Of a stretch of 64,000 nt of DNA, positions 4,333 through 62,577 are shown piece after piece. The position numbers were made by a program, and so were the translations under genes. This stretch comes from Rickettsiales bacterium (GTDB lineage Bacteria; Pseudomonadota; Alphaproteobacteria; Rickettsiales; RI-342). Numbering within the stretch: the stretch's first letter is position 1; each line of letters starts with the position of its first letter. The stretch lies in the NCBI GenBank assembly GCA_044368015.1, contig JBIPLF010000004.1, positions 246 to 64,245 of the forward strand, in the 5' to 3' direction. The notes below the pieces were generated by a model. It was not told the DNA's origin. It searched no databases and was given only the letters and a program-made list of their open reading frames with translations.

Positions 4333-4460
4333 CCCTCTCCCTTTGGGAGAGGGCAGGGTGAGGGAAAATCTTACCCCCTCCCGGTCTCGCTGTCGCGACT
4401 CGGCGGGCTACGCTCGTCTCACGCGGCTCGCCTCCCTCCCCCGCTTCGCGGGAGAGGGGA
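4333..4460. repeat. GC-rich palindromic element, family A composite
   Basis: ccctctccctttgggagagggcagggtgaggg hairpin plus the module ccccctcccggtctcgctgtcgcg...ctacgctc...cctccctcccccgcttcgcgggagagggga. The second module recurs at 17191-17254. Confidence 0.8.
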
Positions 4461-4511
4461 AATTAGGGCGGCCATCTGTTGCGGTTTGTCTCATTACTCG
4501 GAGGGAATCCA

Positions 4512-11653: not shown

Positions 11654-12238
11654 ATGACAGCACCATCTAACTTTATCCTCGCCTCCGCCTCTCCCATCCG
11701 GGCGCAGATGCTACGTGAGGCCGGATGCGTGTTTGACGTCATTGCCGCCCCCGATAGTGCAGAAGAAGCCACCAAATCCACGCTTGCAGATGCCCCTCCG
11801 CCAGAACGGGCGCGGTTACTGGCCATTGCCAAGGCGAAAGCCGTCAGCCTCACCCACCCGGAACGGCTGGTAGTGGGGGCGGATCAGGTCTGCGCGTTGG
11901 GGAAGAATATCCTCTCCAAACCGGGATCGCGGAAACGGGCGACCCAGCAATTACAGGCACTTTCCGGACAGACACACCACCAGCATAGCGCGGCCTGTAT
12001 CCTGCGCAATGGCGAGCTGCTGTGGTCGGAAGTCGCCACCGCCCACCTCACCATGCATCCCCTGTCGCTCACGGCAATCACCGACTATCTCGACCGCGAC
12101 CAGCCCTTTGGCTCCTGCGGCAGCTACCGGTTCGAGGGGACGGGCAAGGCGCTCTTCAGCCGTATCGAGGGAGATGCCTTCACCATTCAGGGACTTCCCT
12201 TGATTCCCCTGCTTTCTGCGCTACAAAGGGTGGCATGA
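11654..12238 (+). CDS. maf: Maf-like nucleoside triphosphate pyrophosphatase
   Basis: [15 protein letters not shown]-terminus and GSYRFEG / IQGLP C-terminal motifs. Stop overlaps the mutS start (ATGA). Confidence 0.85.
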
Positions 12239-14991
12239 AACCCGCCACCACCCTTCCTTCTGACACCACCCCCATGATGCGGCAATATCTGGGGATTCGT
12301 GAGCAGTATCCCGATTGCCTGCTCTTCTACCGCATGGGCGATTTCTACGAGTTGTTTTTTGAGGATGCCGTACGCGCCGCCGACGCGCTGGATATTGCGC
12401 TCACCAAACGCGGCCAGCATTTGGGAGAGGAAATCCCGATGTGCGGCGTGCCGGTGCATAGCCATGAAAACTACCTGCATCAACTGATCGCCAAGGGCTT
12501 CCGTGTGGCCATTTGCGAGCAGATGGAAGACCCACGCGAGGCCAAAAAACGCGGGGCGAAATCGGTGGTGGCCCGCGATGTGGTGCGGATCGTCACCCCC
12601 GGCACCCTCACCGAAGAAGGGTTGCTGGATGCCAAAGCCTCCAACTACCTGCTGGCGCTGGCGGAGATGCGCGGCCAGTTTGCCTGTGCCTGGCTGGAGC
12701 TTTCCACCGGAGCCTTCCGCGCCCGACTGGTAGAGGAAGCTCAGATTCTGGAACTGCTGGCACGCCTCCGCCCGGCGGAGATTTTGCTATCGGAATCGCA
12801 TATCGGCAAGACTCCCTCCACCGCTTGCGGGGGAGGGTTGGGGAGGGGGTGTCAGGAACATCCTGTCTCTACAAACACCCCCCACCTAACCTCCCCCCGC
12901 AAGCAGGGGGAGGAACTTTCGGGCTTCGCCCTTATATTGGAAGAATGGAAAGAAAAACTCCAATTCCACTCACCCGCCTTTTTCCATCCCGTGCAGGGTG
13001 GCGAGCGTCTAAAACGCCTGTTTGGGACGGCGACGCTCGACGCATTCGGCAGTTTTGAGCAACCGGAAATCGCGGCACTCGGCGCGCTGGTGCAGTATGT
13101 GGAACTCACCCAGAAAGGCGCCCTCCCCCAGCTGCTCCCCCCCGTGCGTGAGGTGGTCGGTTCCACCATGGCGATTGACGCCGCGACCCGCAAAAGCCTG
13201 GAACTCACCCACACCCAGCAAGGTACGCGCAAGGGAAGCCTGCTCGACGCAATCGACCGCAGCGTGACATCCGCCGGGGCGCGGCGGTTGCAGGACTGGC
13301 TTTCCGCCCCGTTGACGCTGCTTGCCCCCATTCAGGCACGGCAGGAGGCGGTGGCCTATCTGCTGGAAACGCCGGAACTCCGCACCCGCCTGCGCGAGAT
13401 TCTGCGTCGCAGTCCGGATCTCGAACGCGCCCTCGCACGGGTGGGGCTGAACCGCGCCAGCCCGCGGGATTTGGTCAGTATCCGCGATAGCCTAGAACGG
13501 GCGGGCGGGCTTGAAGCTCTCCTCGCCTCGCCGCGTTTGCCAGAGCATAGCCGGTTATTGGCGGAAACCGTGACGCATCTTTCCGGCCATGCGCCGCTCG
13601 TCACCACCCTGCACCGCGCCCTGAAACCAGAGGTGGGGCCGTTCGCCCGCGAGGGGCATTTTATCGCGGAAGGGTATCACCCGGAACTGGATCGGCTGCG
13701 GAGTTTGCGCGATGATAGCCGTCAGCTCATCGCCCGGTTGCAAGCGCGGTATGTGGGCGAGACGCAAATTCCCTCACTGAAAATCCGGCATAACAACATC
13801 GTTGGCTATTATATTGAGATCACCGCCACGCATCAGAAAAAGGTGCCTGAGAGTTTCATCCACCGCCAAACGCTGGCGAGCGCCATGCGCTTCACCACCC
13901 CCGAACTGGTGGAGCTGGAACGGCAGATTCAGGATGCAGGCGAAAAGGCGCTGGCCGTGGAGCTGGAGATTTTCGAGGCCCTGCTGGGTACGATCCGCGA
14001 GGCCTTCGCTCCCATCCGGAAGGCGGCAGAAGCCATGGCACGGCTGGATGCCTGTGCGAGCCTCGCCGAACTGGCGCAGGAGCAGCGCTACGTCAAGCCA
14101 CACCTCACCGACGATGCGCGGTTTTGCATCACGCGGGGGCGCCACCCGGTGGTAGAGCAGGTGCTTGCGGGTGATGCTTTCATCGGCAACGATACCCGGC
14201 TTTCCGAGGAAAGCCATGTATGGCTGCTCACCGGCCCCAATATGGCGGGTAAAAGCACCTTTTTGCGGCAAAACGCGCTGATCGCCATTCTGGCGCAAAT
14301 GGGGAGTTTCGTCCCCGCCGACCATGCGGAAATGGGCCTCGTGGATCGCGTCTTCAGCCGGGTAGGGGCCAGCGACGATCTCGCGCGCGGGCGTTCCACT
14401 TTCATGGTCGAGATGGTGGAAACGGCGATGATTTTACATCAGGCGACCGACCGCTCCCTGGTGATTCTGGACGAAATCGGCCGGGGAACCGCCACCTATG
14501 ACGGGCTGGCGATCGCCTGGGCGACGCTCGAACATCTGCATCAGGTCAACCGGTGCCGCACCCTGTTTGCCACCCATTACCACGAACTAACGGCACTCAC
14601 CGAGCGGTTGCCGAGGCTCGCCTGCCACACCATGCGCGTGCGCGAATGGCAGGGCGGGATTGTCTTTCTGCATGAGGTCATCCCCGGTGCGGCGGATCGC
14701 TCTTACGGGTTGCATGTGGCACGTCTTGCCGGGCTTCCGGCACCGGTGCTGGCACGGGCCGAAACCATTCTGCAACAGTTGGAATCCAAAGAAGCCGGAA
14801 GTGCCGCAGCCCGTGTGGCGGAGTCCCTTCCCCTGTTTGCCTTCGCGGAAACGCAAAGCGCCCCGCCGCCTGCGCCTCCTTCGGCACTGGAACAACAACT
14901 CGCGGCGCTGGATGTGGATAACCTCACCCCCCGCGAAGCACTGGAGTGGTTGTACCGTCTTAAAGGGCCACTCTCCACACAGCCTGCGTAA
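12235..14991 (+). CDS. mutS: DNA mismatch repair protein MutS
   Basis: [34 protein letters not shown] mismatch-binding N-terminus, Walker [24 protein letters not shown] 12235 chosen; the ORF-track start 12022 overlaps maf. Confidence 0.95.
12813..12912. repeat. GC-rich palindromic element, family A, in frame inside mutS
   Basis: tccaccgcttgcgggggagggttggggagggggtg and caccccccacctaacctccccccgcaagcagggggagg are inverted arms. Translated as ...[33 protein letters not shown]... Confidence 0.8.
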
Positions 14992-15095: not shown

Positions 15096-16922
15096 ATGCA
15101 ACTTCGCAATCTGGCGATTATCGCCCACGTTGACCACGGTAAAACCACCCTCATCGACCAAATGCTGCGCCAGAGCGGCGCGTTTCGTGTAAACCAGCAA
15201 GTGGCTGAGCGGGTGATGGATTCCAACGATCTGGAAAAGGAACGTGGGATTACGATTCTCGCCAAATGTACCTCCATCACCTGGAATGATACCAAGCTCA
15301 ATATCATCGACACCCCCGGCCACGCCGATTTCGGTGGCGAGGTGGAGCGCGTGCTGACCATGGTGGATGGCGTGCTGCTGCTGGTGGATGCCGCCGAAGG
15401 CCCCATGCCGCAAACCAAATTCGTGCTTTCCAAAGCGCTCGCGCTAGGACTCCGTCCGATTGTGGTCATCAACAAGGTGGACCGCGCCGACGCCCGCGTG
15501 GAAGAAGTGCATGACGAAGTGTTTGATCTCTTCGTCTCGCTGGATGCCAATGACGACCAGCTCGATTTCCCAACTCTCTACGCATCGGGCCGCAATGGCT
15601 GGGCCGCCACCAGTCTGGAAGCCCCGCGTGAGCACCTCCATTGCCTGTTCGATCTGATGATTCAACACGTTCCCTCGCCGAAAATTGAGGCCGCAGGAAC
15701 GCCCTTCGGGATGCTCGCCACCATTCTGGAATCCGACAATTATCTGGGGCGGATGCTCACCGGCAAAGTCTATGGCGGCGAAATCACCCTCAACGCTCCG
15801 GTCAAAGTGATGCGTCTGGACGGCACCATCGCCGAACAGGGACGCTTAAGCAAATTGCTGGCGTTTCAGGGGATTGAACGGGTGCCGGTAGAGCGTGCCG
15901 AGGCAGGAGACATCATCGCCATCGCCGGGCTGGAAGATGCCAGCGTATCGGACACCATCTGCGCACTGGAGCGGGAAATCCCCATCCCCTCCACCCCTAT
16001 CGACCCGCCAACCATGGCGATCACCATTAACGTGAACGACTCCCCACTCGCCGGGACGGAAGGCACCAAAGTGACCTCGCGCATGATCCGCGACCGTCTG
16101 TTCAAGGAGGCCGAGGGCAATGTGGCGATCAGCGTCCGCGAGAACGAAGCCAAAGACGCGTTCGAGGTCGGTGGACGCGGCGAGCTGCAACTGGGCGTGC
16201 TGATCGAAACCATGCGCCGCGAAGGGTTTGAACTCTCGGTATCCCGTCCCCGCGTGCTGATGCAAAAGGACGAATCCGGTAATGTGCTGGAACCGATCGA
16301 AGATGTGCAAGTGGATGTAGACGAGGAATATAGCGGGATTGTGGTAGAAAAACTCTCCATCCGCAAAGGCGATCTCACGGAAATGCGTCCCTGCGGTGCC
16401 GGAAAGCTGCGGCTGAAATTCCTCATCCCCTCGCGTGGGCTGATTGGCTATCGCGGCGAATTCCTCACCGATACCCGCGGTACGGGGGTACTGACGAGCC
16501 TCTTCCACAGCTATGCGCCCTATAAGGGCGATATCCCCGGACGTCGCAACGGGGTGCTCATCTCCAACAGCACGGGGATTGCCGTCGCCTACGCCTTGTG
16601 GAATCTGGAAGATCGCGGTTTCATGTTCATCCAGCCACAGATCAAAGTGTATGAGGGGATGCTTATCGGTCAGCATACCCGCGACAATGATCTGGAAGTG
16701 AACCCGCTGAAGGGCAAGCAGCTTACCAACATCCGCGCCGCCGGAAAGGATGAGGCCGTGCGCCTTACCCCTCCGCGTGAGATGACGCTGGAACAGGCGA
16801 TGTCCTACATCAACGACGATGAGTTGGTGGAAGTCACCCCCAAATCCATCCGCCTGCGGAAGAAAACCCTCTGCCCGAATATGCGCAAACGCGAGAGCCG
16901 GGCGGGTAGCGGCGGGGCGTAG
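15096..16922 (+). CDS. typA: translational GTPase TypA/BipA
   Basis: NLAIIAHVDHGKTTL G1 motif, DTPGHADF, NKVD. 608 aa with the EF-G-like domain order typical of BipA. Confidence 0.95.
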   Translation: MQLRNLAIIAHVDHGKTTLIDQMLRQSGAFRVNQQVAERVMDSNDLEKERGITILAKCTSITWNDTKLNIIDTPGHADFGGEVERVLTMVDGVLLLVDAAEGPMPQTKFVLSKALALGLRPIVVINKVDRADARVEEVHDEVFDLFVSLDANDDQLDFPTLYASGRNGWAATSLEAPREHLHCLFDLMIQHVPSPKIEAAGTPFGMLATILESDNYLGRMLTGKVYGGEITLNAPVKVMRLDGTIAEQGRLSKLLAFQGIERVPVERAEAGDIIAIAGLEDASVSDTICALEREIPIPSTPIDPPTMAITINVNDSPLAGTEGTKVTSRMIRDRLFKEAEGNVAISVRENEAKDAFEVGGRGELQLGVLIETMRREGFELSVSRPRVLMQKDESGNVLEPIEDVQVDVDEEYSGIVVEKLSIRKGDLTEMRPCGAGKLRLKFLIPSRGLIGYRGEFLTDTRGTGVLTSLFHSYAPYKGDIPGRRNGVLISNSTGIAVAYALWNLEDRGFMFIQPQIKVYEGMLIGQHTRDNDLEVNPLKGKQLTNIRAAGKDEAVRLTPPREMTLEQAMSYINDDELVEVTPKSIRLRKKTLCPNMRKRESRAGSGGA

Positions 16923-17030: not shown

Positions 17031-17254
17031 CACCCCTCCCTTGATGGGAGGGGTCGGAATCGTTGACGATTCCGGGGGAGGGTGTCATCCTGAGCGTAGC
17101 GAAGGATCCCTCAGTTTACATAAACCTATCCGTGCTTCGTAAACGGAGAGATCCTTCGGGGATGCATCCTCTCATGATGACCACCCCCTCCCGGCCTCGC
17201 TGGCGGTTCGCTACGCTCACGCCGCTCGCCGACCTCCCCCATCAAGGGGGAGGT
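17031..17254. repeat. nested composite: family A arms enclosing a family B element (17084-17180)
   Basis: cacccctcccttgatgggaggggtcggaatcgttgacgattccgggggagggtg, then gtcatcctgagcgtagcgaaggatccctc...gagagatccttcgggg...catgatgac, then ccaccccctcccggcctcgctgg...cccccatcaagggggaggtg. Confidence 0.85.
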
Positions 17255-17349: not shown

Positions 17350-18582
17350 TCACTGCCCTTCCATCTGCGATGCGATGTACCCACTGACGGCTGCCATGGC
17401 GTCGCACACCCGATCCAGTAGCTCAGCTTTGTGGTGGTCCGCTGCTTCCCAGGCGATTTCGGCCTGTTTGCACTGTTCGGAGAGGGCAAAGGCCCCCAGA
17501 TTAGCGCTGGCCCCTTTGAATTTATGCGCCGCCGCCTTCCATGCCGCCTGATCTCCTGTTTGCAACGCCTGACGCAGGCTTTGGATGTTGATGTCTGCCT
17601 CGGAGAGAAACAGTTCAAAAATCTCGGCCTCTGCCTCCCGGTCGCCATCGGTGAACAGCCGTAAATGCTCCATATCCACCGGAGCCGTGGAGGGTGATGC
17701 AGGGGGCAATTCCTGCGCCAAAGCTTGGGCGTTTTGCGTGGCTGGAATCCACTGATTGAGGACTCCAATGAGTGTCTCTGGCTTGACCGGCTTGGTGATA
17801 TAGTCGTCCATACCGGCGTTTAGGCAGGTCTCCCGGTCGCCGATCATGGCGTTGGCGGTCATGGCGATGATCGGTACATGGCTGGTGCCGTCCTGTTCCT
17901 GCAAACGTACGGTGTGGGTGGCGGTGTAGCCGTCCATCTCTGGCATCTGGCAATCCATCAGCACCAGATCATAGGCCTGCAAGGTTATTTTATCCAGGGC
18001 CTCCTGCCCATTTTCGGCGGTATCGACCTGTGTGATGCCCAGTTTTTTGAGTAGCTTCAACAGGAACATCAGGTTGATGGGATGGTCATCCACCGCCAGA
18101 ATCCGGGCATCGGTGCGGAAACGTGCCTCCCGCGTTTCGGTGTGCGTGCGGACAGGTGCTTCCGTTACAAAACACACCTCGCCGCTGGGAACTTCCATCG
18201 GAATGCGGAGGGTAAAACAGGAGCCCTTCCCGGCTTCGCTGGTCACGGTGATGGTACCGCGCATCAGCAGGGCCAGTTCGCGGCTGATGGCCAGCCCCAA
18301 CCCGGTACCCCCGTATTTGCGGGTGGTGGAGGCATCGGCCTGCGTGAATTTCTCGAAGATGGTATCCAGTTTGTTTTTGGGAATACCGATGCCGCTATCC
18401 CGCACATGCACCAGCATCTGGTGATCCTCGTCGGTTTCCACTTCGATCCTCACCCCGCCCTTTTCGGTGAATTTCAACGCATTGCTAATCAGGTTGCGGA
18501 TGATCTGCTGGATGCGGGTGCAGTCCCCCATCAATAGCGGCGGAAGGGCTGGGGAGAGGCTCAAATCCGCGTTGCCTGGCAA
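17350..18582 (-). CDS. hybrid sensor histidine kinase, C-terminal fragment (HATPase_c + REC + HPt)
   Basis: N-box [14 protein letters not shown]-boxes RDSGIGI / [10 protein letters not shown], receiver [11 protein letters not shown]...[13 protein letters not shown]...KP, HPt [14 protein letters not shown]. The ORF-track start is a TTG artefact, and the frame continues from 18485..19366 after a frameshift. Confidence 0.8.
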
Positions 18583-19366
18583 GCGGGTGAAACAGGCGAT
18601 GCAGCCCGTCGAAGAGATCCTGCGTGTGATACAGCGTGTGTTCCAGCGTTAATCCACCGGATTCCACTTTGGAGATATCTAAAATATCATTCAGCAATTC
18701 GAGCAGTTGTTCACCGGACTGATGAATGGTCTGGATCATCTCCTGTTGTTCGTCTGGCAGTCCTGCGTCCAGCAACAAGCGCGAAAGCCCCAGCATCCCA
18801 TTCATCGGGGTGCGGAGCTCATGGCTCATATTGGCCAGAAAACGGCTTTTAGACTCGCTGGCGCTTTCGGCTTTCTCACGCAGGGTGTTGGCTTCCAGCA
18901 GATGCTCTTCCAGTTCCAGCATCGTGGCTTCTGCCCGCATGGTGGCAAGTTTGAGCTTGCGGGTGTTGCGTTGCTGTTCGCTGATATCGCGGATCAGGGT
19001 CAGGGCACCCACCGCCGCTCCCCGCTCCAGCAGGGGGAGGATTTTATACTCAAACCAGCGATGTTCACGCTGGGCAGAGGCAGGTTTTTCAAGCGTGGCG
19101 ACGAAGGGGCGATGGGGGGGCGTGAGTAGGTCATGGGTGTCTTCCTCCAGCTTCATCAAATCGTCATTGTTCAGAATGGCAGGGTCCCACCCCTCCAGCG
19201 GCAAGGCTCGCAGCGCTTGCCCGACCACCTGTCCCGGACGTTTGGCACCGATCAGCTCCAGATACATGGCGTTGCATCCTGCCACCCGTCCGGCTGCGTC
19301 TGTCCAATAGACAGCGCTTGGCAGGGTGTTAACTATCAGGGAGAAGGTGGAATCGGAGAATGGCAT
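18485..19366 (-). CDS. hybrid sensor histidine kinase, N-terminal fragment (PAS + HisKA)
   Basis: Cytoplasmic PAS-like region and H-box [18 protein letters not shown]. The ORF runs out of frame about 100 nt before the ATPase fragment begins. Confidence 0.8.
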
Positions 19367-19451
19367 GGCACGTCCTTGATCAATGCTATGTTTTCGGCTT
19401 GCTTGACGCTTGCATCATCCCTTTTCCCTGCCGCTTGCGGCAACGGTTCTA

Positions 19452-19545
19452 CCCCCTCTCCCTCTGGGAGAGGGTCGGGGTGAGGGGGGACTTAACTCGT
19501 CCCTCACCCGGCGCTGCGCGCCACCCTCTCCCGGAGGGAGAGGGA
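19452..19545. repeat. GC-rich palindromic element, family A
   Basis: ccccctctccctctgggagagggtcggggtgaggggg ... ccctcacccggcgctgcgcgccaccctctcccggagggagaggg. Confidence 0.8.
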
Positions 19546-19579
19546 ATCAGGCCGCTCCATGAAGAAAACACAAGTTAGG

Positions 19580-19948
19580 TCACCGGTTCAGCACATCGTC
19601 CCGCGTGGTGGCGACAATCGCAAGCGCCTCGTCGATCATCGGAGCGTCAACGCCCAATTCCTGCAACGTGGCCACCAGATGACCTGCCACACGGTCGAAA
19701 TGCACGTCGGAAAGACCGCGTTTTACCAATCCAAAATGCGCGGTGCGTAAATGCTGCCCCTCGTAATGGTGTGGCCCGCCGAACGCCATGGTGATGAAGG
19801 CCGTCTGACTGGCACGGAGCCTTGCCATATCCACATCCTCAAAGAAGGGGATGAGCAGCTCGTCCTCCAGAATTTTTTCGTAGAATCGTACCACTGTGGC
19901 TTTCACCGCGTCGCGGCCCCCTAAACGCTCGAACAAACATCCGCTCAT
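19580..19948 (-). CDS. glbN: group I truncated haemoglobin (TrHbN-like)
   Basis: 122 aa. FERLGGRDAVKATVVRFYEKILED...FF...Q..F...AFGGPHHYEG..L..AH pattern of 2-on-2 globins. Confidence 0.85.
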   Translation of the reverse strand: MSGCLFERLGGRDAVKATVVRFYEKILEDELLIPFFEDVDMARLRASQTAFITMAFGGPHHYEGQHLRTAHFGLVKRGLSDVHFDRVAGHLVATLQELGVDAPMIDEALAIVATTRDDVLNR

Positions 19949-19957
19949 TGGGTTCTC

Positions 19958-20842
19958 CTATCCGTTGTTGGCACGTTGTTTGTGCTCGGACGCACAATCG
20001 CGAATGTAATGTAAAAGCACTTCCTTACGGAATGGTTTATGGACAAATCCCCGCGCTCCGTAATCGAAAGCCGTCAGGATGTTGTCCAGATACCCGTGCG
20101 AGCTGAACATCACCACATAGGCATCCTTATCGGCGGCAAGGATACGTTGCAGCACGGCAAATCCGCTTTTGTCCGGGAGATTGATATCCAGAAACACAAT
20201 ATCCGGTGCATAGAGCAGGTAGTTGCCGATCGCATCCTGCGCGGTTTCGGCGGTCACCAGCCGGTAATCGTTTTTGAGTAATTGCCCGGCAATGCGGCGC
20301 GTTACCGGATCGTCCTCCACCAGCATCACATAGGGCGGCTGACGCGTGCCTCGTTGGGTGATGTTGGCCTCCAGAATATCGGGGATCATCTCCACCCCAT
20401 CCAGCAGGCTATCGGCCGTGTGCGGGCTGCGTGCGGCAACCGTCGATGCCTTGCCCTTGGTGGCAATGAGTGTGGCCGCCGCCTGCCATTCCTGTTGCAG
20501 CGCATAGAGTTTTCGGCTGGTGATGCACCAGTCACGCGTGCGTAGCGCATTGCCCAGCAGGGTGGAAAAATCGGCAAACACCTGCTTTTCAACATGGCGG
20601 CCCATCAGGATCACGTCACCGTCGCTGCACAGAAATCCGCAGCTATCGGTATTGTAAAACCCGACTCCAATAAGGTCCTGCAACAGCAGGTGAATCTCAT
20701 CCGGCGAGGCATGACGATCCATGTTATACGGGCGCAGGCCCACATGCTGCATGGTCCAGTTGCGCCAGGTGAGCGGATCATGCCGAATGGCCTCTGCAAT
20801 CTGGGCCAGCAATTCCGGAGCAGTTTCATAGCGTAAATACAT
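19958..20842 (-). CDS. response regulator: unassigned N-terminal domain + C-terminal receiver
   Basis: C-terminal REC (VMLVEDDPVTRR...IVFLDINLPDKSG...GARGFVHKP). The N-terminal ~150 aa have no motif I recognise. Paralogue of 20961..21839. Confidence 0.8.
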   Translation of the reverse strand: MYLRYETAPELLAQIAEAIRHDPLTWRNWTMQHVGLRPYNMDRHASPDEIHLLLQDLIGVGFYNTDSCGFLCSDGDVILMGRHVEKQVFADFSTLLGNALRTRDWCITSRKLYALQQEWQAAATLIATKGKASTVAARSPHTADSLLDGVEMIPDILEANITQRGTRQPPYVMLVEDDPVTRRIAGQLLKNDYRLVTAETAQDAIGNYLLYAPDIVFLDINLPDKSGFAVLQRILAADKDAYVVMFSSHGYLDNILTAFDYGARGFVHKPFRKEVLLHYIRDCASEHKQRANNG

Positions 20843-20890
20843 GGTATCTTCCTTCCTGTTGGCACTTTTTTATATGTGTCTTCATCTTCT

Positions 20891-20939
20891 CATCCTGAAC
20901 CCGGAGGGGTCGGAATCGCTTGCGATTCCGGGGGAGGTG
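20891..20939. repeat. short family A fragment (ggaggggtcggaatcgcttgcgattccgggggaggtg)
   Basis: Same ggtcggaatcg-N-cgattccggggg hairpin as at 17054-17080. Confidence 0.75.
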
Positions 20940-20960
20940 AACCACACAGAACCTCCTGAA

Positions 20961-21839
20961 CTATACGGTTTGTTTGGCGCGCAGATGCGGCGAACGCTGA
21001 ATGGATTCTTCCAGCTTCAGCCGGGTGAAGGGCTTGCCAACAAACCCCTTGGCCCCCATTTCCACGGCGCGCATAATGTTGGCGCGGTCGCCATTGCCAC
21101 TCAACATAACGATATAGGCATCCGGATCGATTTCGCGGAGGCGGGCAAGCAACTCAAACCCGTTGACGTCCGGCAGGTTGATATCCAGAAACAGGACATC
21201 AGGTGCCTGCGTGACATACAATGGCAGGGTGTTGTCCCCGCCATCTGAGAGTACCAACGCATAGGTTTCCGGCAGGGCTTTCCCCACCAGCTTGCGGGAG
21301 AACGCATCGTCCTCGATCACCATCACCGTGACGCGATCGCGGTTGCGGCGACGCTCGGCGAGGGTGGCAATCAATTCCGCCCGCAGGGGAGAGCGTAAAA
21401 TATCCTGTTTGCGGCGGGCACTGTTTTCCTGCGCTTTGGCGATCTGTACTTCCTGCGTCACGGCTTCCTGCGCGGCAATCTGTGCTTCGGCCAGCGCACG
21501 CAGCGGGCTGTAGCTGCGCTCAATGTCATGGAGCATGGCCAGTGAGGCAATCGGCCAGATGAGCAGATCGGAAAAACGGGCTACAATTGTTTCATAACTG
21601 CGAAAACGAATGGTTTCAGCCAGCAGGAGCACATCGCCATTGGTGAAAAAGAATGCCTGAAGCGACGGATCGTCAATCTCATTTTGCAACGCGGTAGCGA
21701 GGAGTTCCGGGGTGATGCTGTGGCGTTGATCGCAGGTTGAGAAGCGGAAATGCAGCACCCTTCCCGGTGTGCGTGCATGGTGCCAGCTATCCAGTGTCTG
21801 GCGGAAGGTACGTTCGGCATGGTCGGTGATGGTCAACAT
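20961..21839 (-). CDS. response regulator: unassigned N-terminal domain + C-terminal receiver
   Basis: C-terminal REC (VMVIEDDAFSRK...VLFLDINLPDVNG...GAKGFVGKP). N-terminal domain is paralogous to 19958..20842 and to the N-terminus of 59860..61083. Confidence 0.8.
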   Translation of the reverse strand: MLTITDHAERTFRQTLDSWHHARTPGRVLHFRFSTCDQRHSITPELLATALQNEIDDPSLQAFFFTNGDVLLLAETIRFRSYETIVARFSDLLIWPIASLAMLHDIERSYSPLRALAEAQIAAQEAVTQEVQIAKAQENSARRKQDILRSPLRAELIATLAERRRNRDRVTVMVIEDDAFSRKLVGKALPETYALVLSDGGDNTLPLYVTQAPDVLFLDINLPDVNGFELLARLREIDPDAYIVMLSGNGDRANIMRAVEMGAKGFVGKPFTRLKLEESIQRSPHLRAKQTV

Positions 21840-21886
21840 ATCGCTTCTCTCTGCACTTGCTTGCGGTTGGTTCGCCCTTCCTTAAG

Positions 21887-21902
21887 TGCAGCGCCCGTGC
21901 CA
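21887..21902 (-). promoter_or_regulatory. sigma-54 (-24/-12) type promoter candidate
   Basis: Minus strand reads TGGCACGGGCGCTGCA, against consensus TGGCAC-N5-TTGCA (one mismatch, correct GG/GC spacing). It lies 48 nt upstream of the start codon at 21839, next to a divergent GAFTGA activator gene. Confidence 0.5.
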
Positions 21903-21962
21903 GAGTCATTTAATTTTACATATCAATATATTGACCGTGTTGCGCCGCGCAAAAACCATCCA

Positions 21963-22019
21963 TTAAGCGTTTGATAATGAAACGCCTTTATCCTGAGCGT
22001 TGCAAAATGAAACGCTTAA
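21963..22019. promoter_or_regulatory. tandem imperfect palindromes (candidate activator binding sites)
   Basis: aagcgtttgataatgaaacgcc and gagcgttgcaaaatgaaacgctt: two copies of AGCGTT-N9-AACGC, 60-115 bp upstream of the sigma-54 motif. The outer 10-mers ttaagcgttt / aaacgcttaa are perfect inverted repeats. Confidence 0.4.
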
Positions 22020-22034
22020 GGGTGATCCATCCCC

Positions 22035-23432
22035 ATGTCCGACCGTATTCTCTTGGTGGAAGATGACCGTACCCAACGGCTGATGACGCAGCGTTTGTGC
22101 GAGAAGCTGATGGGGTGCACGGTGCTGACCGCGTCGCATGGGTTGGAGGCGATCGGCACGCTGGAGATGGAAGAAGATATTGCTCTCGTCCTCATGGATG
22201 TGCAGATGCCGGTGATGGATGGGCTGACGGCGCTCAAAAAAATCCGTGCCCGCCATGCGGAACTGCCGGTAATCATGCTCACTGGCTCCAGCCAGCCGGA
22301 CGATATCGTCGCCGCGATGCGGGCGGGCGCGACGGATTTCCTCCCCAAACCGGCGGATCCGGAGCGGTTGCGGGTTTCCATTCAGAACGCATTGCGGTTG
22401 CAGGCGCTCGCCCGCGAGGTAGCGCGGCTCAGTCGCGGACAAGGAGAGGCGATTGGCTTCCGCGACCTCATCGGGCATGACAAGGGACTCGCCGACATCA
22501 CCCGCATGGGACGCAAAGCGGCGTTTGCATCCATCCCGGTGCTCATCAGTGGCGAAACCGGTACGGGGAAGGAGATGGTCGCCCGCGCCATCCATGGCGA
22601 AAGCCCCCGCGCTCGCGGGCCGTTTGTGGCGGTGAATTGCGGGGCGATCCCGGAAAAACTGGTGGAAAGCACCCTGTTTGGCCATGAAAAAGGCGCCTTT
22701 ACCGGAGCGATTGCCAAGGCGCTCGGTAAATTCCGCGAGGCCGATGGCGGAACGATCTTCCTCGACGAGGTAGGCGAGCTGCCGCCGGAAGCGCAGGTGA
22801 AACTGCTGCGCGTGCTTCAACAACACGAGGTGGAGCCGGTGGGGGCCGGGCGCACGGTGCCGGTCAATATCCGGGTGATTTCCGCCACCCATCGCGACCT
22901 GCGCGAGGATGTCGCATCCGGGCGCTTCCGCGAGGATCTCTATTTCCGGCTGCATGTGCTGTCGCTCGCCATGCCGCCGCTGCGCGAGCGGGCGGAGGAT
23001 ATTCCCCCACTGGCCAGCCATTTGCTGGACCGCTTTGCCACCAGCGATCGGCTACCCTTCAAACGCCTGTCACCGGAAGCGAAAGCATTACTGCAACGCT
23101 ATGACTGGCCGGGCAATGTGCGCGAACTGGCCAACACCCTGCACCGGGCGCTGGTACTCTCCGAACATGAGGTGCTGGAAGCCACCGATTTCCCCGAATG
23201 CCACCGCACCCCCTCACGGATGGAATCTCTGCCTGCCCTATCCGGGGGAGCATCCCCCTCCACTCCCCTGTTCCTCAATGCCGATGGCACGCTGAAACCC
23301 TTGCGCCAACTGGAGGAAGAAGCGATCCGCTTTGCCCTCTCCCACACCAAGCAGAACGCCACACAGGCCGCCGCTGCGCTGGGTATCGCCAAATCCACGC
23401 TGTATCGGCATTGGGGGAAAGAGACACTGTGA
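22035..23432 (+). CDS. sigma-54-dependent response regulator (NtrC family: REC + AAA+ + Fis-type HTH)
   Basis: REC (ILLVEDD...[13 protein letters not shown]...KP), Walker A GETGTGKE, intact GAFTGA, C-terminal [19 protein letters not shown]. Confidence 0.9.
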
Positions 23433-23457: not shown

Positions 23458-23529
23458 TCCCCCCACTCCTTCACCCGCGCCAGATGCATAAAATCCGAAT
23501 GCGGCGGGCGGCGGTCGGGTGTGGGGCAG
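23458..23529. repeat. direct repeat copy 1 (duplicate of the addB 3' end)
   Basis: 72 bp identical to 23988-24060 except for one C fewer in the leading C-run. Confidence 0.9.
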
Positions 23530-23706
23530 ATTCTACGAAAATATTCGTAACGACGCGTAAAGCATTGGCCCCAAGGTGATTTGACTTCAGTGTTTCACCG
23601 TATTGTCACAAAACACACATGTGCCTGTCACAGTCTGTAGGCAGAGTGCGCATGGTTAGTTACTTAGCCTACAATGCGTAAAAATCACAGAAAAGGAGAT
23701 CAAGTA

Positions 23707-23943
23707 ATGCCAATTCGCGCCGTGCTTCCCACTGCCGACCAAGCAGAAGGAATGGAAATCTATTACGCTATGACAGAGGTTCTGCCAACAAATATTACGG
23801 ATGGTATTTCTTACGCTACTGGTTATCAGCTGACTTGGAGCGATGATCATCTGCCTGATGGATCTACCAAGGAGACAGCGGGCAAACATATACAACGGTA
23901 TATAGAAGAGAAAGCCAAAAAGATTGGTATTGCCATGGGGTAG
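23707..23943 (+). CDS. hypothetical small protein (78 aa) carried by the insert
   Basis: AAGGAG lies 7 nt upstream of ATG 23707. No recognisable motif. The ORF-track start 23674 is also possible. Confidence 0.4.
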   Translation: MPIRAVLPTADQAEGMEIYYAMTEVLPTNITDGISYATGYQLTWSDDHLPDGSTKETAGKHIQRYIEEKAKKIGIAMG

Positions 23944-23984: not shown

Positions 23985-26900
23985 TCATCCCCCCCACTCC
24001 TTCACCCGCGCCAGATGCATAAAATCCGAATGCGGCGGGCGGCGGTCGGGTGTGGGGCAGGAGAGATAGGGCGTTTCCGGATCGTCAAACGCAGCAATGA
24101 GTGCCTGCACGCCCGCTTCCGCCTCCCGAATCAGCGTTGGGTGTTTCTCGGGTTTAGGGGTTAGGTATTCCACCACATCCTCACGTCCGTGCAACTTCCA
24201 GTAGGAGGTGGTGAAACTCAGGGGAAGCTCTGGTAAGTCTGCAAACCCGGCTTTGGCGGCAATCAACGCTTCCAGTGTCAATTGGCAGGCAACGCCCTGA
24301 TCAATCTTCTTCTGACTGGGGAGCAGACCAGTTTTGTAATCAATGCAGGCGAGTTCCCCCGTGGAAGGCGCATATTCCAGCCGGTCGGCCTTGGCGCTTA
24401 GCGTAAACGGCCCGGCGGACGCTGCCCATTGCCAGGTGCCGGTGCATTCGCTGAAAAGCTGCAACCCCGTGGCACGCCGCGCTGCGTCTTCCTCCACAAA
24501 CCAGTGGAGAATCTGCATCAGCCGTGGCCACCAGAAATGCCGAATCGCCGGACGTTCCAGCAGTTTCCCCAGTTGGGACGCGGCCTCCTGCTCCATCCAT
24601 GCGATCCGCGCATCGGGAGAAAGTGAAGGAAACGCCAGCGCATAACCCTCCAGAATCGCATGGAGTATCTGCCCGAATTGCAGATGGCTGGGGTCGAGAT
24701 CGAGTTCCTCCAACGCCTTGAGCTTGAGGATTTTCGACGCATAGAGGCTATAGGGATCGCGCAGTAACAGCTCAATTCGCGTCGCCGAAAGTGACCGTGG
24801 CCGCAGGCCTACCGGAGGGCAAGCCGCCACCGGTGCAAGCGGTGTCACGGTTTTCGGTTGGTCCAGCTGCGCCACCCATGCGGGGAAATGCGCGGTACTC
24901 CCCCTCTCCCTGTGGGAGAGGGAGGGGTGAGGGAAATCTGAATCCTGAACTCCGCACTCTACACTCTGCAATCCCCCCACCACCTCCACTCGCTGCCACC
25001 AACGCGAGGGGATGGCCGGGCTTCCCCCCTGTTTGCGGGCGCGGGTGAGGATTACCTCCGGCAGTGCCATCAGGGTAGCAACATCATAGGCCGAACGACC
25101 AATTTCCTCCGTCGTGTCCGGCAACCCCAGCTTCACGCGCATCGGACGGCTGAGCCAGGGGTCGGCCTCTGGCAATGCGGGCCAGGTGCCCTCGTTCAAC
25201 CCGGCCAGAATCACCCGATCGGCCCGTTGCAACCGCGCCTCAATGGGGCTTAGAATCCGCAGCCGTGGATGCCGATGGTAGGGCGCGTGGTAGCTCTCCT
25301 TGCTCATTAATTGCTGCAACACGGCGGCATAATGGCGACCATCCAGCGTAAAATGCTCCTCGGCGGCATCCCACAACGCCTCGCACCACCGGCTGCTGGC
25401 ATGTCCGGTATCCTCGGCCCACAGCCGCTCGGCACCGGGTGCGACATCGCTACTGGCGAGCGCCTCAGCGGCGCGCAGATGCGTCTCCCACAGATCACGC
25501 AGCCTCACCGACCGGGCGGCAAGCAGGCGCGTCAATGGCTCCAGCGCCGCATGGATACGGTCGAACCAGACGCGCATTTCCGGTTCGTCGTGCTGAGCGG
25601 AGCGAAGCATCTCGCCACTTGCTCCAAAGGTTTGTCGCGATGAGAGATCCTTCCGCTTCGCTCCGCTTTGCGTCAGGATGACATCCCGCCACCCCTCCAA
25701 CGTATGAGGCCGCAACCCCCGCAAGGTGTGGATTTCCAGCCTCCGCGCCATGCGACGACAGGCGGCAGGCGTAACCCCCACCACCGCCATCGGGTGTTTG
25801 AGAAGCGCCAGAAACGGCACCGGCGAGAGCGGATCACCCGCCAACTCCACCACCAAACGCAGAAACACCATGGAGGGCAGCGCGGCCACCGGCACCCCAG
25901 CGGAATCGTCCAACTCCACCCCATAGCGTGCCAGCGAGGCAATCACCCGACGCGCCAGCGCCCGATCCGGCGTGACGAGCATCGCCGTCTTGCCGGGGGT
26001 TTCCAACGTTTCGCGCAGCATCATGGCAATGCCAAGCGCTTCGTCCTGGGGGGTGGGGAAGACAGGGTTCAGGATTCGGGATTCAGGGGTCAGAAGTTTT
26101 TCCGTCCCTCTTTCTGAATCCTGAATCCTGAGCCCTGAACCCTGATGCCACGCCTCACTCACCGCTGCTGGCCGCATCACCTCGGCGATCCAGCGGGTGC
26201 GGGGTGATAGCGGCGAGGCACCCGGAAACAACGTCACCGCCTCACGCGGGAGGTTGAGCAGCTCCAGCAGGTTTTTCAGCGCATATTGCGGGTGACCGGG
26301 GGCAATGGCTTTCCAGTAATCGGCATCGCTTTCCTGATCGAGCGGCGGCAGCACCAGCATCCCTTCCGGCATCCGGGCGATGCAACGCAGCAGCCGCGCC
26401 GTGGCGGGCTGACTGCCGGTAGACCCCGCCGCCACCAGCGGAAAGGCGGGCGGATGCGCCTCCCAATGCGCCACCAGCGCCCGCAATTGCCGGTTGCGGC
26501 GATCCACCGGGTCCAGAAAACCAGATTCCTGCACGATCTTCGGCCAATGTTCGGTGAGGATGCTTAAAAACCCCACCACCTCCTGCCAGTGATGCGACAG
26601 ATGCTCCGGTGCCAGATCGCGCAGCTTACTGGTGTCGCAATCATAGCGTTGCCAATCATCCAGCAGACTCGCCAGACTATCGGCCAGCAGCAGCGCGTGG
26701 TCGTGACGGCGAATCGCCTGCGGCAGCGCGCCCTGCCAGCGTTCAATCAGTTGCGCGAGGAGGAATTGCCGGGTCAGCAGCGGAATCGCCGGAGGCAGCG
26801 GCGCAATCTCTTCCAGAATCGCGGCGAGGCTCCCTTCCTGCTCGATATCCCCCAGCGCCGCCATGCGCGGCAGCAGCAGGGGCCGCCCCTCGCTCACCCG

Positions 26901-27056
26901 CACAAAGGCTTCGCGCAACGCCGGAACCGCTCGCTGCGTGGGCAGCAGCACCAGCGTCCGGGCCAGCAACTCGGCCTCGTCCTGCGTGCGATGGATCAAC
27001 CCACGCGCCAGCGTTTCCAGAAATGCCACGCCTGCGGGGATGGTCGTGCAATGCAT
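23985..27056 (-). CDS. addB: double-strand break repair protein AddB (alphaproteobacterial type)
   Basis: 1023 aa. N-terminus TIPAGVAFLETLARGLI and C-terminal PD-(D/E)xK nuclease region ADRLEY...CIDYKTG are typical of alpha AddB. Three palindromic elements are read through in frame. No addA downstream. Confidence 0.85.
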   Translation of the reverse strand: MHCTTIPAGVAFLETLARGLIHRTQDEAELLARTLVLLPTQRAVPALREAFVRVSEGRPLLLPRMAALGDIEQEGSLAAILEEIAPLPPAIPLLTRQFLLAQLIERWQGALPQAIRRHDHALLLADSLASLLDDWQRYDCDTSKLRDLAPEHLSHHWQEVVGFLSILTEHWPKIVQESGFLDPVDRRNRQLRALVAHWEAHPPAFPLVAAGSTGSQPATARLLRCIARMPEGMLVLPPLDQESDADYWKAIAPGHPQYALKNLLELLNLPREAVTLFPGASPLSPRTRWIAEVMRPAAVSEAWHQGSGLRIQDSERGTEKLLTPESRILNPVFPTPQDEALGIAMMLRETLETPGKTAMLVTPDRALARRVIASLARYGVELDDSAGVPVAALPSMVFLRLVVELAGDPLSPVPFLALLKHPMAVVGVTPAACRRMARRLEIHTLRGLRPHTLEGWRDVILTQSGAKRKDLSSRQTFGASGEMLRSAQHDEPEMRVWFDRIHAALEPLTRLLAARSVRLRDLWETHLRAAEALASSDVAPGAERLWAEDTGHASSRWCEALWDAAEEHFTLDGRHYAAVLQQLMSKESYHAPYHRHPRLRILSPIEARLQRADRVILAGLNEGTWPALPEADPWLSRPMRVKLGLPDTTEEIGRSAYDVATLMALPEVILTRARKQGGSPAIPSRWWQRVEVVGGLQSVECGVQDSDFPHPSLSHRERGSTAHFPAWVAQLDQPKTVTPLAPVAACPPVGLRPRSLSATRIELLLRDPYSLYASKILKLKALEELDLDPSHLQFGQILHAILEGYALAFPSLSPDARIAWMEQEAASQLGKLLERPAIRHFWWPRLMQILHWFVEEDAARRATGLQLFSECTGTWQWAASAGPFTLSAKADRLEYAPSTGELACIDYKTGLLPSQKKIDQGVACQLTLEALIAAKAGFADLPELPLSFTTSYWKLHGREDVVEYLTPKPEKHPTLIREAEAGVQALIAAFDDPETPYLSCPTPDRRPPHSDFMHLARVKEWGG
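23988..24060. repeat. direct repeat copy 2 (functional addB 3' end)
   Basis: Starts immediately after the addB stop codon complement (23985-23987) and encodes the last ~24 codons of addB. Confidence 0.9.
24900..24950. repeat. family A hairpin plus family D-like tail, in frame in addB
   Basis: ccccctctccctgtgggagagggaggggtgaggg followed by aaatctgaatcctgaac. Translated on the minus strand as ...VQDSDFPHPSLSHRERGS... Confidence 0.75.
25586..25682. repeat. family B palindromic element, in frame in addB
   Basis: cgtcgtgctgagcggagcgaagcatctc...gagagatccttccgcttcgctccgctttgcgtcaggatgac. Same architecture as 17084-17180 and 40197-40301. Translated as ...SGAKRKDLSSRQTFGASGEMLRSAQHDE... Confidence 0.8.
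26063..26144. repeat. family D palindromic element (gattcagg / cctgaatc repeats), in frame in addB
   Basis: cagggttcaggattcgggattcaggggtcag ... ctgaatcctgaatcctgagccctgaaccctg. Translated as ...GSGLRIQDSERGTEKLLTPESRILNP... Confidence 0.8.
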
Positions 27057-40345: not shown

Positions 40346-41377
40346 ATGCGGGTGCTTACCATCATGTTGGGGCGCGGGCTGGGTGGCATTGAACAAGCCT
40401 TTGTCGACCAGGCGGAAGCGCTTCAGGCCGTGGGATGCGAGGTGTTATCGGTCACCGATAGCCGCGCACAGATTCGTACGGTTCTGGATCGGCGGTTTCT
40501 CCCCTATCGCACGCTGCGGCAGCATGGCCCGTGGGACCCGCTCGCGGTGGTGTATCTCAAACGATTGATTGCCGATTTTCGCCCGCAGGTGGTGGTGGTG
40601 CATGGCAATCGCGCACTGGGGTTTGCGGCGCGCATCCATCCCCGACCCTGCCCGATTGTGGCGGTGGCGCACAACCCTTGGGTAAAACGCTTTCCCAAAG
40701 CCGATGGCTGCATTGCCATTACCCCGGAGATTGCTGAGCATCTTCAGCGGGCGGGGGTGCAGGCGGAACGGATTTTCGTGGTGCCGAACATGATTGCCAT
40801 CGACCCGCAGATGTGGCTGCCGATGCGTGGCTGGCATCAACCGCCGGTGATTGGCGCGCTGGGGCGGATGGTGGGGAAGAAAGGCTTTTCCACCTTCATC
40901 CATGCGTTGGGGATGCTGCGGAATCACGATGTACCCTTCCAGGCGATGCTGGCGGGTGATGGTCCGGAACGGGCGGCGCTCGAAGCACAGGTCGCCAAAT
41001 TGGGCCTTCAGCATCAGGTGCAGTTTGTCGGCTGGATTGAGAACAAACACACCTTCTTTGAAAATATCGACGTGTTTTGCCTTCCCTCCTGGCAGGAGCC
41101 GTTTGGTATTGTGCTGCTAGAGGCGATGCGCGCCGGTGTGCCGATTGTTGCCACCCGTTCCGGTGGGCCATCCTACATTCTGGAGCATCAGCACACGGCA
41201 CTCCTCACCGCCGTGGGAGATGCCGCGCAACTCGCCGATGCGCTGGAGGCCATCCTCACCCATCCGGATGAGGCGCTGAGTTTAGCGGAAAACGCCTACC
41301 ACACCGTGTGCGATCGCTATGCCGTGGAGATAGTGGCGGAGGAATTGCTCCATGTGTTGCAGCGGGTGGTGCAATGA
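40346..41377 (+). CDS. glycosyltransferase family 4 (GT-B)
   Basis: MRVLTIMLGRGLGGIEQ N-terminus and EX7E region SWQEPFGIVLLEAMRAGVPIVAT. Confidence 0.8.
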   Translation: MRVLTIMLGRGLGGIEQAFVDQAEALQAVGCEVLSVTDSRAQIRTVLDRRFLPYRTLRQHGPWDPLAVVYLKRLIADFRPQVVVVHGNRALGFAARIHPRPCPIVAVAHNPWVKRFPKADGCIAITPEIAEHLQRAGVQAERIFVVPNMIAIDPQMWLPMRGWHQPPVIGALGRMVGKKGFSTFIHALGMLRNHDVPFQAMLAGDGPERAALEAQVAKLGLQHQVQFVGWIENKHTFFENIDVFCLPSWQEPFGIVLLEAMRAGVPIVATRSGGPSYILEHQHTALLTAVGDAAQLADALEAILTHPDEALSLAENAYHTVCDRYAVEIVAEELLHVLQRVVQ

Positions 41378-49864: not shown

Positions 49865-50003
49865 CCCCCTCCCTGTCCCTCCCCCGCGTTGCGGGAGAGG
49901 GGACCGGAGGGAAAGCCTCTCCTGATACACATACGCTGATCGTAGAGCGCGATGGTGCATCAGGTCCCCTCTCCCGCAACGCGGGGGAGGGACAGGGAGG
50001 GGG
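49865..50003. repeat. family A element with perfect 41-bp inverted arms
   Basis: ccccctccctgtccctcccccgcgttgcgggagaggggacc (49865-49905) is the exact reverse complement of 49963-50003. It starts 1 nt after the lon stop. Confidence 0.9.
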
Positions 50004-62481: not shown

Positions 62482-62565
62482 CCCCCCCTCCCTTGATGGG
62501 AAGGGGATAGGGGTATTTTGAAGGTATCACCCCCTCCCTAACCCTCCCCCATTCAGGGGGAGGGA
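62482..62565. repeat. GC-rich palindromic element, family A
   Basis: ccccccctcccttgatgggaaggggataggggt ... caccccctccctaaccctcccccattcagggggaggg. It fills the tig-pyrH spacer and abuts the pyrH start codon. Confidence 0.8.
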
Positions 62566-62577
62566 ACAAGGCATCGC

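Follow-up and report, generated by a model that had tools for sequence, protein, structure and literature searches.

A separately encoded truncated haemoglobin as candidate sensor partner of a PAS hybrid kinase in a sigma-54-linked signalling cassette, with a frameshifted copy in a Rickettsiales genome

The stretch of DNA analysed here, referred to as the window, comprises 64,000 nucleotides (nt) of the genome of a Rickettsiales bacterium (GenBank assembly GCA_044368015.1, contig JBIPLF010000004.1, positions 246 to 64,245 of the forward strand). It carries a compact signalling locus in which the gene for a small stand-alone truncated haemoglobin lies between two paralogous genes for receiver (REC) proteins, here called X-REC1 and X-REC2 after their orphan N-terminal X domain, and the gene for a PAS histidine kinase with a histidine phosphotransfer (HPt) domain, the whole being divergent from the gene for an NtrC-type activator (Table 1). 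The positions given for both REC genes, the globin gene and the activator gene in an initial annotation, which had been made from the sequence alone, were confirmed by open reading frames (ORFs) and Pfam matches, as were the intact GAFTGA motif and divergent transcription of the activator gene and the 9-nt spacing between the X-REC2 stop codon and the globin start, which is preceded by GGAGAA.

Table 1. Genes and sequence elements of the signalling locus (window coordinates).
Feature	Position	Strand	Remarks
NtrC-type sigma-54 activator	22035-23432	+	REC, AAA+ with GAFTGA, HTH_8; divergent from the operon
Two 20-nt dyad-symmetric sites, candidate activator binding sites (upstream activator sequences)	21966-22015		AGCGTTTGATAATGAAACGC and AGCGTTGCAAAATGAAACGC; repeat and inverted-repeat search
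Sigma-54 (-24/-12) promoter motif TGGCACGGGCGCTGCA	21887-21902	-	47 nt 5' of the first REC gene
X-REC1, 292 residues	20961-21839	-	orphan N-terminal domain (~residues 1-135), helical linker, C-terminal receiver
Repetitive extragenic palindromic (REP)-like hairpin in the REC1-REC2 gap, GGAGGGGTCGGAATCG..CGATTCCGGGGGAGG	20903-20937	none	repeat family D5
X-REC2, 294 residues	19958-20842	-	X-REC1 paralogue of identical architecture
Group-I truncated haemoglobin (trHbN), 122 residues	19580-19948	-	member of the kinase-associated clade
REP-like double hairpin in the globin-kinase gap	19454-19544	none	widens the gap to 213 nt
Kinase, 5' part	18485-19366	-	PAS, helical linker, HisKA (H-box SHELRTP); 293 residues, out-of-frame tail at the end
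Frameshift site splitting the kinase	~18545-18570	-	three-frame translation against intact homologues
Kinase, 3' part	17350-18582	-	+1 frame; HATPase_c, REC, HPt
Second copy of the D5 REP-like hairpin	17047-17081	none	just 3' of the kinase stop codon

The globin has Bac_globin as its sole Pfam match (2.4e-20, residues 5-120 of 122) and over its entire length can be aligned with GlbN of Synechocystis (2e-29), THB1 of Chlamydomonas and HbN of M. tuberculosis (1.7e-19), its best matches all being T1/N truncated haemoglobins. Both Gly-Gly hinges are kept, 'LGGRD' and 'AFGGP' aligning with the GG motifs of GlbN, and the pocket retains Tyr B10, Phe CD1, Gln E11 and His F8, with Leu at E7, Ser at E10 and Glu at B11. 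Judged by these features the protein is a group-I truncated haemoglobin (trHbN, T1), and haem binding is predicted. In a neighbour-joining tree it falls within a monophyletic clade of 11 of the 206 terminals, the members of which carry Leu or Ile at E7, Ser at E10, Glu at B11 and Lys-Leu at B8-B9, whereas the other sequences have Gln at E7 (89/89), Lys at E10 (83/89), mostly Arg at B11, and Ile-Phe at B8-B9. The haem pocket of the clade is, to judge from the alignment, a derived one, remodelled at E7, E10 and B11. The clade globins are 50-67% identical among themselves and their loci range from 35% to 59% GC. Leu E7 alone was rejected as a predictor of kinase adjacency, since one trHbN outside the clade (P0036, locus L093) has Leu E7 and no neighbouring kinase. 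Ordinary trHbN genes, encoding Gln E7, are often tandem duplicates or triplicates (L074, L087, L090, L073, L080 and L091), and in L074 (1976-4760) a sigma-54 activator gene is flanked by two globins of other trHbN branches.

The closest relatives of the window globin with readable genomic context share 58-68% identity with it and come from metagenome loci. In L002, an NtrC-type activator gene is followed by the globin gene and, after 21 nt, by a PAS hybrid kinase gene with HPt, two X-REC genes lying divergently behind a sigma-54 motif; in L006, the globin gene overlaps the start of a PAS kinase gene; L008 and L016 have X-REC, REC, hybrid kinase and globin genes with the NtrC-type activator gene convergent; L009 has globin, kinase-REC, X-REC, HPt and REC genes; and in L018 and L095, REC, globin and PAS hybrid kinase genes follow one another at gaps of 6-35 nt, in the same order as in the window. 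In L094, the globin gene begins 23 nt after a gene for a methyl-accepting chemotaxis protein (MCP), and a globin outside the clade (L004; 66% identical, Gln E7) is encoded between two MCP genes. In the window and in all relatives alike, the globin is encoded by an ORF of its own, from start to stop codon, and the arrangement expected of a stand-alone sensor, a globin gene conserved beside a kinase or MCP gene across distant genomes, was found for 10/10 clade members with readable context, of which nine adjoin a PAS (hybrid) histidine kinase and one an MCP. The spacing between globin and kinase genes in the relatives runs from overlap up to 50 nt, against 213 nt in the window.

A metagenome scan yielded 80 further trHbN loci (51-61% identity). 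Six-frame translations of all loci were screened with kinase, MCP, REC and sigma-54 AAA+ queries; trHbN loci outside the clade served as the comparison set if flanked by at least 1.5 kb of sequence, and a kinase or MCP domain was counted when it lay no more than 1.5 kb away. Adjacency was found at 9/9 clade loci and at 4/65 other trHbN loci (Fisher p = 6.5e-9), a value that is indicative only, because the contexts were already known when the signature was recognised and the loci lack phylogenetic independence. One further globin, P0008, was placed in the clade by the tree before its context was known, and the context (L097, a 2.2-kb contig) then agreed: 15 nt after the globin gene lies an ORF whose N-terminus matches the PAS subfamily of the kinases with E = 2e-40. 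A scan of genome contigs with the single globin sequence returned three irrelevant loci only (L010-L012). The initial annotation had proposed that the globin could be a trans-acting sensor partner of the PAS kinase, an idea that would lose ground if the globin gene sat at unrelated positions in relatives; the opposite was found, adjacency being kept, and the proposal is well supported by a gene neighbourhood conserved in distant organisms. The comparative signal for globin-kinase pairing is strong at the level of gene order; the window copy is damaged.

Variation in the kinase complement was also observed among the relatives. A second hybrid kinase (HAMP-HisKA-HATPase-REC-HPt) is encoded beside the cassette in L002 (30-4464) and in L008 (963-3964), each time next to a periplasmic binding protein, which is of the Phosphonate-bd family and accompanied by a Porin_O_P protein in L002 and of the SBP_bac_3 family in L008. 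By analogy with Vibrio quorum sensing, this points to a network in which several kinases feed the same receivers. No second HAMP hybrid kinase lies near the cassette in the window. In L009 (9241-9944), the kinase has no fused HPt, and a separate HPt of 113 residues and a receiver of 121 residues are encoded after X-REC, which reads as the same relay assembled from separate parts.

The kinase of the window had initially been described as a single ORF, 19366-17350, and in this respect the description did not survive. That span is 2017 nt long, which is not divisible by 3, and PAS-HisKA and HATPase-REC-HPt lie in different frames, the 5' part matching PAS_4 (2.5e-8) and HisKA (8.4e-23) and the 3' part HATPase_c (1.5e-32), Response_reg (6e-30) and Hpt (4.6e-12) in Pfam. 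The SHELRTP H-box and the HPt His are readable in the translations. Comparison with intact homologues places the change of frame after 'LARQRG', between HisKA and HATPase, where it corresponds to an insertion of 1 nt or a deletion of 3n+2 nt. Since the identical ORF pair is found both on the source contig (111.7 kb) and on L096, a Logan contig from a separate assembly, the break is probably present in the reads and no assembler artefact. Programmed +1 frameshifting at the break is unlikely, as there is neither an in-frame stop codon nor an upstream Shine-Dalgarno-like element. The kinases of relatives are intact (806, 799, 813, 893, 554 and 399 residues), and in several of them HisKA, HATPase_c, receiver and HPt are found in one polypeptide, as in unorthodox hybrid kinases of the ArcB/BarA/TorS type, whereas in the window the four domains are spread over two frames. 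With the kinase frameshifted, the relay as encoded in this genome is probably not intact.

The kinases of the window, L002, L006, L009, L018 and L097 have in common an N-terminal PAS subfamily, with the motif LP.AvfW.D..G...GCN.aF followed by a conserved helix MANMRSEATM.EL.EHL, and no membrane segment precedes it. The alignment of this globin-associated subfamily contains no conserved His, so that a His-ligated haem of the FixL type within the PAS domain itself is unlikely, which fits a sensor supplied in trans. The kinases of L008, L016 and L095 carry other PAS domains and share only the helix. The kinase core gives weak, sub-threshold NCBIfam matches to NahK/ErcS-type models (82 bits against a cut-off of 1500). 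Only one further histidine kinase was detected in the window; it is an NtrY-type sensor kinase (41308-43545, plus strand; NtrY_N, HAMP, PAS, HisKA, HATPase_c) and unrelated to the cassette.

The activator matches Sigma54_activat (3.2e-68), Response_reg (3.9e-28), AAA_lid_14 and HTH_8 in Pfam, with GAFTGA and Walker A motifs readable in the translation; it scores under the cut-off of every NCBIfam equivalog and shares 48% identity with the L002 activator along the full length. The window contains both halves of an NtrC-class system, namely an activator with receiver, GAFTGA-bearing AAA+ and C-terminal helix-turn-helix domains and a promoter with -24 GG and -12 GC elements at the correct spacing 5' of a target gene. 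The motif TGGCACGGGCGCTGCA is the sole match to TGGCAC-N5-YTGCW within the 64 kb and, on its own, is not significant, 0.25 matches being expected in the window and 20/100 shuffles giving at least one. Weight is given to it because of its position before the first REC gene and because an equivalent motif is found in L002 (TGGCACACCCCCTGCA, 34 nt 5' of the first X-REC gene) and in L008 (TGGTACGTCGCTTGCA, 22 nt 5' of the first X-REC gene), in both of which the orthologous activator gene adjoins it. The two dyads upstream of the window motif (21966-21985 and 21996-22015) are 30 nt apart from start to start and lie ~85-115 nt 5' of the -12 element. Their position and form are typical of sites for enhancer-binding proteins, and they may be regarded as candidate binding sites of the activator. 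As two distant relatives have the motif in the equivalent position and dyads lie upstream of it in the window, the reading of sigma-54 control proposed at the outset holds. Scans of the locus for sigma-70 consensus promoters and terminators gave counts at background, with none in the globin-kinase gap.

The two X-REC proteins have a Response_reg domain at residues 172-280, with the receiver residues DD, D, S and K readable in X-REC1, and are 29% identical over 249 residues (E = 1e-32), the N-terminal domain included. The earlier description of two receivers with an unknown effector domain is borne out, the proteins being paralogues and their N-terminal domain matching no family. For this domain of ~135 residues, there was no Pfam match up to E 10 (six members), no NCBIfam match, and no PDB sequence match at E up to 10. 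A word-index search with the X-REC1 domain returned only itself; when 1.84 billion representatives were searched by HMMER with a profile of both paralogues, the result was the two window proteins and three weak, unconvincing matches; and a word-index search with a six-member profile returned known family members only. The only homologues detected, two in L002 and one each in L008 and L009, are encoded next to clade globins. The N-terminal domain was unusable in a full-length AlphaFold2 (AF2) model of X-REC2 (predicted local distance difference test, pLDDT, 35-60); an AF2 model of the L008 domain built from five sequences reached a pLDDT of 73.8 and a predicted template modelling score (pTM) of 0.69, with the topology beta-alpha-beta-alpha-beta-beta-alpha-beta-alpha. 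The best Foldseek matches of this model in the PDB were mostly GGDEF domains (DosC, DgcR, FimX and WspR among others), with probabilities of 0.9-0.99, E values of 4e-3 or worse and TM-scores of 0.40-0.46.

In the model, a conserved acidic hairpin (GDGDV, SDGDV or TNGDV, with EDDDV and NKNSF in other members) occupies the position of the GG(D/E)EF motif, and the members of the X family have no GG(D/E)EF motif, no RxxD I-site and no conserved Asp in beta-1. Alignment of the family with three GGDEF domains by hhalign was not significant (probability 0.6%, E = 0.1), the best local alignment being in the expected register. The X domain is probably, on the strength of the model, an orphan with a GGDEF-like, non-catalytic fold, and it is not called a GGDEF domain here. 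Its predicted beta-alpha-beta-beta-alpha-beta core may resemble that of GGDEF domains, including degenerate ones (FimX, PelD-type), but the domain is shorter (~130 against ~160 residues), has neither the motif nor a Pfam match, and is placed N-terminal to the receiver, the reverse of the order in PleD and WspR.

The palindromic element initially noted between the globin and kinase genes is a double hairpin, made of CCCTCTCCC-N3-GGGAGAGGG plus GGGTGAGGG, with an RNA fold of -104 kcal/mol (z = -5.7); other copies of its family lie at 4333-4367 and 24902-24936. Its insertion accounts for the width of the gap compared with the relatives. No terminator-like T tail follows the hairpins of the locus, and an Rfam search returned one tRNA only. 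The hairpins, present in both intergenic gaps and after the kinase gene, are REP-like elements that invaded the operon. Similar palindromes are found inside long ORFs of the window, where they keep the frame and are translated, for example, as 'PSLSHRERG': three lie in an AddB-like ORF (23985-27056, minus strand) at 24902-24936, 24937-24968 and 26113-26144, and one at ~12881-12914 in the MutS ORF (12022-14991). They are reminiscent of the in-frame palindromic element insertions known from Rickettsia. Furthermore, G+C-rich hairpin repeats CCCTCCCCC...GGGAGAGGGG are found at 1580-1623, 4422-4465, 49865-49908 and 62530-62573, and the genome appears rich in elements resembling REPs or miniature inverted-repeat transposable elements. 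A perfect 71-nt direct repeat, at 23459-23529 just after the activator gene and at 23990-24060 in the 3' end of the AddB-like gene, brackets ~460 nt with an ORF of 89 residues (23674-23943) without Pfam match, and resembles either an insertion with target duplication or a small mobile cassette. BipA (15096-16922) and NuoF (43561-44844) are singletons at 90% identity among ~15 billion proteins; by this measure, the source organism is without a close sequenced relative. The NtrY and AddB-type genes by themselves mark it as a probable alphaproteobacterium.

Taken together, the locus is read, with rather more confidence than doubt, as a multistep phosphorelay cassette under sigma-54 and an NtrC-type activator, in which the haem sensor would be the separately encoded trHbN. 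The globin would bind a diatomic gas or change its redox state (O2, NO and redox are all candidates) and would act on the cytoplasmic hybrid kinase through its N-terminal PAS domain, altering autophosphorylation. The phosphoryl group would then pass from the HisKA His to the Asp of the kinase receiver and on to the HPt His. From there, the activator would be phosphorylated, bind the two dyads and open the sigma-54 promoter before X-REC1, X-REC2, globin and kinase, creating a positive feedback, and both X-REC proteins would also receive phosphoryl groups, with their orphan N-terminal domain as the output. Haem binding, the identity of the ligand, the contact between globin and PAS, the routes of phosphotransfer, the feedback loop and the function of the X domain are what we infer from sequence. 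The clade globins are probably separately encoded gas sensors, to judge from their neighbourhoods. The globin-kinase pair of L002 adjoins the regulator gene and is not behind the sigma-54 promoter, a placement to be expected for a sensor more than for an output; moreover, transcriptional control of a detoxifying enzyme cannot explain adjacency to MCP genes (L094, L004). On a wider scale, the chances are judged even that the trHbN branch with Leu/Ile E7, Ser E10 and Glu B11 has been recruited to provide cytoplasmic PAS hybrid kinases and chemoreceptors with a dedicated sensor subunit for gas or redox state, encoded by a gene of its own and feeding receivers with an undescribed GGDEF-like pseudo-enzyme domain.

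Several points weigh against this interpretation, in addition to the limits on the p-value given above. The globin of the window lies inside the sigma-54-driven operon and could equally be a regulated product, and the roles chiefly attributed to trHbNs are those of NO dioxygenases or enzymes that handle O2, not of sensors (PMC7475203). A single docking domain is not universal, because the kinases of L008, L016 and L095 are without the special N-terminal PAS domain, and no dyad site similar to those of the window is evident in L002 or L008. Finally, because the kinase is frameshifted, the mechanism is inoperable as written in the window organism, unless the two halves work in trans. The frameshift and the three REP-like hairpins in the operon indicate that the cassette is probably crippled or decaying in this genome and intact in relatives.

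The main alternative to a sensing role is that the globin is the output of the system, a NO dioxygenase or O2 scavenger under two-component control, with the kinase sensing through its own PAS domain. This would agree with the Tyr B10, Leu E7, Gln E11 pocket shared with enzymes of the M. tuberculosis HbN type and with the place of the window globin 3' of the sigma-54 promoter, in one transcription unit with the REC genes, but it is rather unlikely in view of the relatives: the L002 globin is grouped with regulator and kinase genes outside the sigma-54-driven unit, the globins of L094 and L004 adjoin chemoreceptors, which exert no transcription control, and contact with the kinase gene (overlaps, or gaps of 8-50 nt) is always kept in genomes of 35-59% GC in spite of rearranged gene order. 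The PAS subfamily without a conserved His for haem and a pocket remodelled at E7, E10 and B11 in the clade only also argue against an output role. That the adjacency is a matter of chance or a lineage-specific accident might be considered from the window, which offers one locus only, signalling genes being abundant in such genomes, yet it is exceedingly improbable given that 10/10 clade members of varied GC content lie beside a kinase or MCP gene, that adjacency is kept where the order is rearranged, that 9/9 clade loci contrast with 4/65 others, and that the tree-based prediction for P0008 was confirmed.

Other alternatives concern the state of the window copy. It is marginally more probable than improbable that the cassette is here a decaying relic, with the hybrid kinase a pseudogene and the other genes orphaned or served by other kinases, as is suggested by a frameshift between HisKA and HATPase present in two assemblies, by the lack of a Shine-Dalgarno-like sequence before either possible start of the 3' ORF, and by REP-like hairpins in both intergenic gaps and after the kinase gene, with a globin-kinase gap of 213 nt instead of at most 50 nt. 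The other cassette genes are, however, all intact with catalytic residues conserved; the neighbouring housekeeping genes are intact too, which indicates neither general decay nor an error-prone assembly; and REP elements are common inside working operons. The halves of the kinase, moreover, break exactly at a domain boundary, and separated dimerisation/histidine phosphotransfer (DHp) and catalytic/ATP-binding (CA) domains can complement each other in trans in vitro; a two-piece kinase working from separate halves is possible. It is improbable, though far from negligible, that the shift is an error of sequencing or consensus, or belongs to a minor allele, and that the organism encodes an intact PAS-HisKA-HATPase-REC-HPt kinase of ~672 residues. 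The shift lies at or beside a short T run (gga ttt gag), and a single-base change restores a frame in which only a segment shorter by 2-4 residues departs from the alignment with homologues; against this, the frameshifted pair also appears in Logan contig L096 (run SRR27335586), although the reads may be identical, other genes of the contig have no frameshifts, and a 3-nt homopolymer is an atypical error site.

Most bacterial truncated haemoglobins are without an assigned physiological role, and sensing is attributed to another globin lineage. A trHbN clade that is always found with a kinase or chemoreceptor provides a concrete, testable function, together with a sequence signature by which further members can be found. 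Stand-alone haem gas sensors such as H-NOX and NosP control biofilm, motility and quorum circuits. The cassette further exposes a new receiver-linked domain without detectable sequence relatives, and the frameshifted kinase and REP invasions of the window would show such a cassette in the course of loss. A search of the literature found no report of a trHbN-kinase pairing, but its coverage was incomplete and a prior description is possible.

Among the known systems are the characterised trHbNs (GlbN, HbN, THB1), to which the window globin is homologous over its full length (E = 2e-29 to 1e-19), with the same Tyr B10, Gln E11 and His F8 and with Leu E7 as in HbN. It differs from them in Ser at E10 (His in GlbN, Lys in most others), in Glu at B11 and in its signalling-only gene context, and the characterised proteins are described as NO dioxygenases or enzymes of nitrogen metabolism, not as kinase partners. 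A histidine kinase, an MCP or a cyclase is under the control of the globin haem domain in globin-coupled sensors (AfGcHK, HemAT, DosC/YddV) and in sensor single-domain globins, and partners of these classes adjoin the clade described here. The globins of globin-coupled sensors, however, belong to the 3-on-3 S family and are fused to their transmitter, whereas the window globin is of the T1/N type and separate; as it is unfused and of the T rather than the S lineage, the cassette is no globin-coupled sensor. A review of 2020 assigned sensing to the S family and, among bacterial T globins, listed chimeric forms for no groups but T2/O and T3/P (PMC7475203).

NosP, encoded with NahK and HptB in Pseudomonas, Vibrio, Legionella and Burkholderia, resembles the cassette as a stand-alone haem NO sensor with a hybrid kinase and an HPt relay, but it has a FIST-type fold in place of a globin, and the kinase of the cassette scores far below the NahK cut-offs. 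H-NOX proteins act with HnoK in Shewanella, with HnoB, HnoC and HnoD, and with HqsK in Vibrio, from which the signal passes through LuxU to LuxO. As in the cassette, the gene for a small stand-alone haem protein lies beside that for a cytoplasmic (hybrid) kinase and the relay runs via HPt to several receivers, ending in Vibrio at a sigma-54 activator of the NtrC type; the receiver HnoD carries a degenerate cyclic-di-GMP-type domain, and H-NOX genes also occur beside MCP genes. The cassette differs in its 2-on-2 globin (Bac_globin) as sensor, in the HPt fused to the kinase and in its putative X-REC outputs. Because its sensor has a globin fold, with Bac_globin as the only Pfam match, it lies outside the H-NOX and NosP families. 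If the interpretation is correct, the trHbN clade would join H-NOX and NosP as the third protein family in the role of stand-alone sensor and would be the first case of T-family globins in signalling, in a cassette whose logic, as far as the analogy carries, matches that of H-NOX/HnoK, H-NOX/HqsK-LuxU-LuxO and NosP/NahK-HptB.

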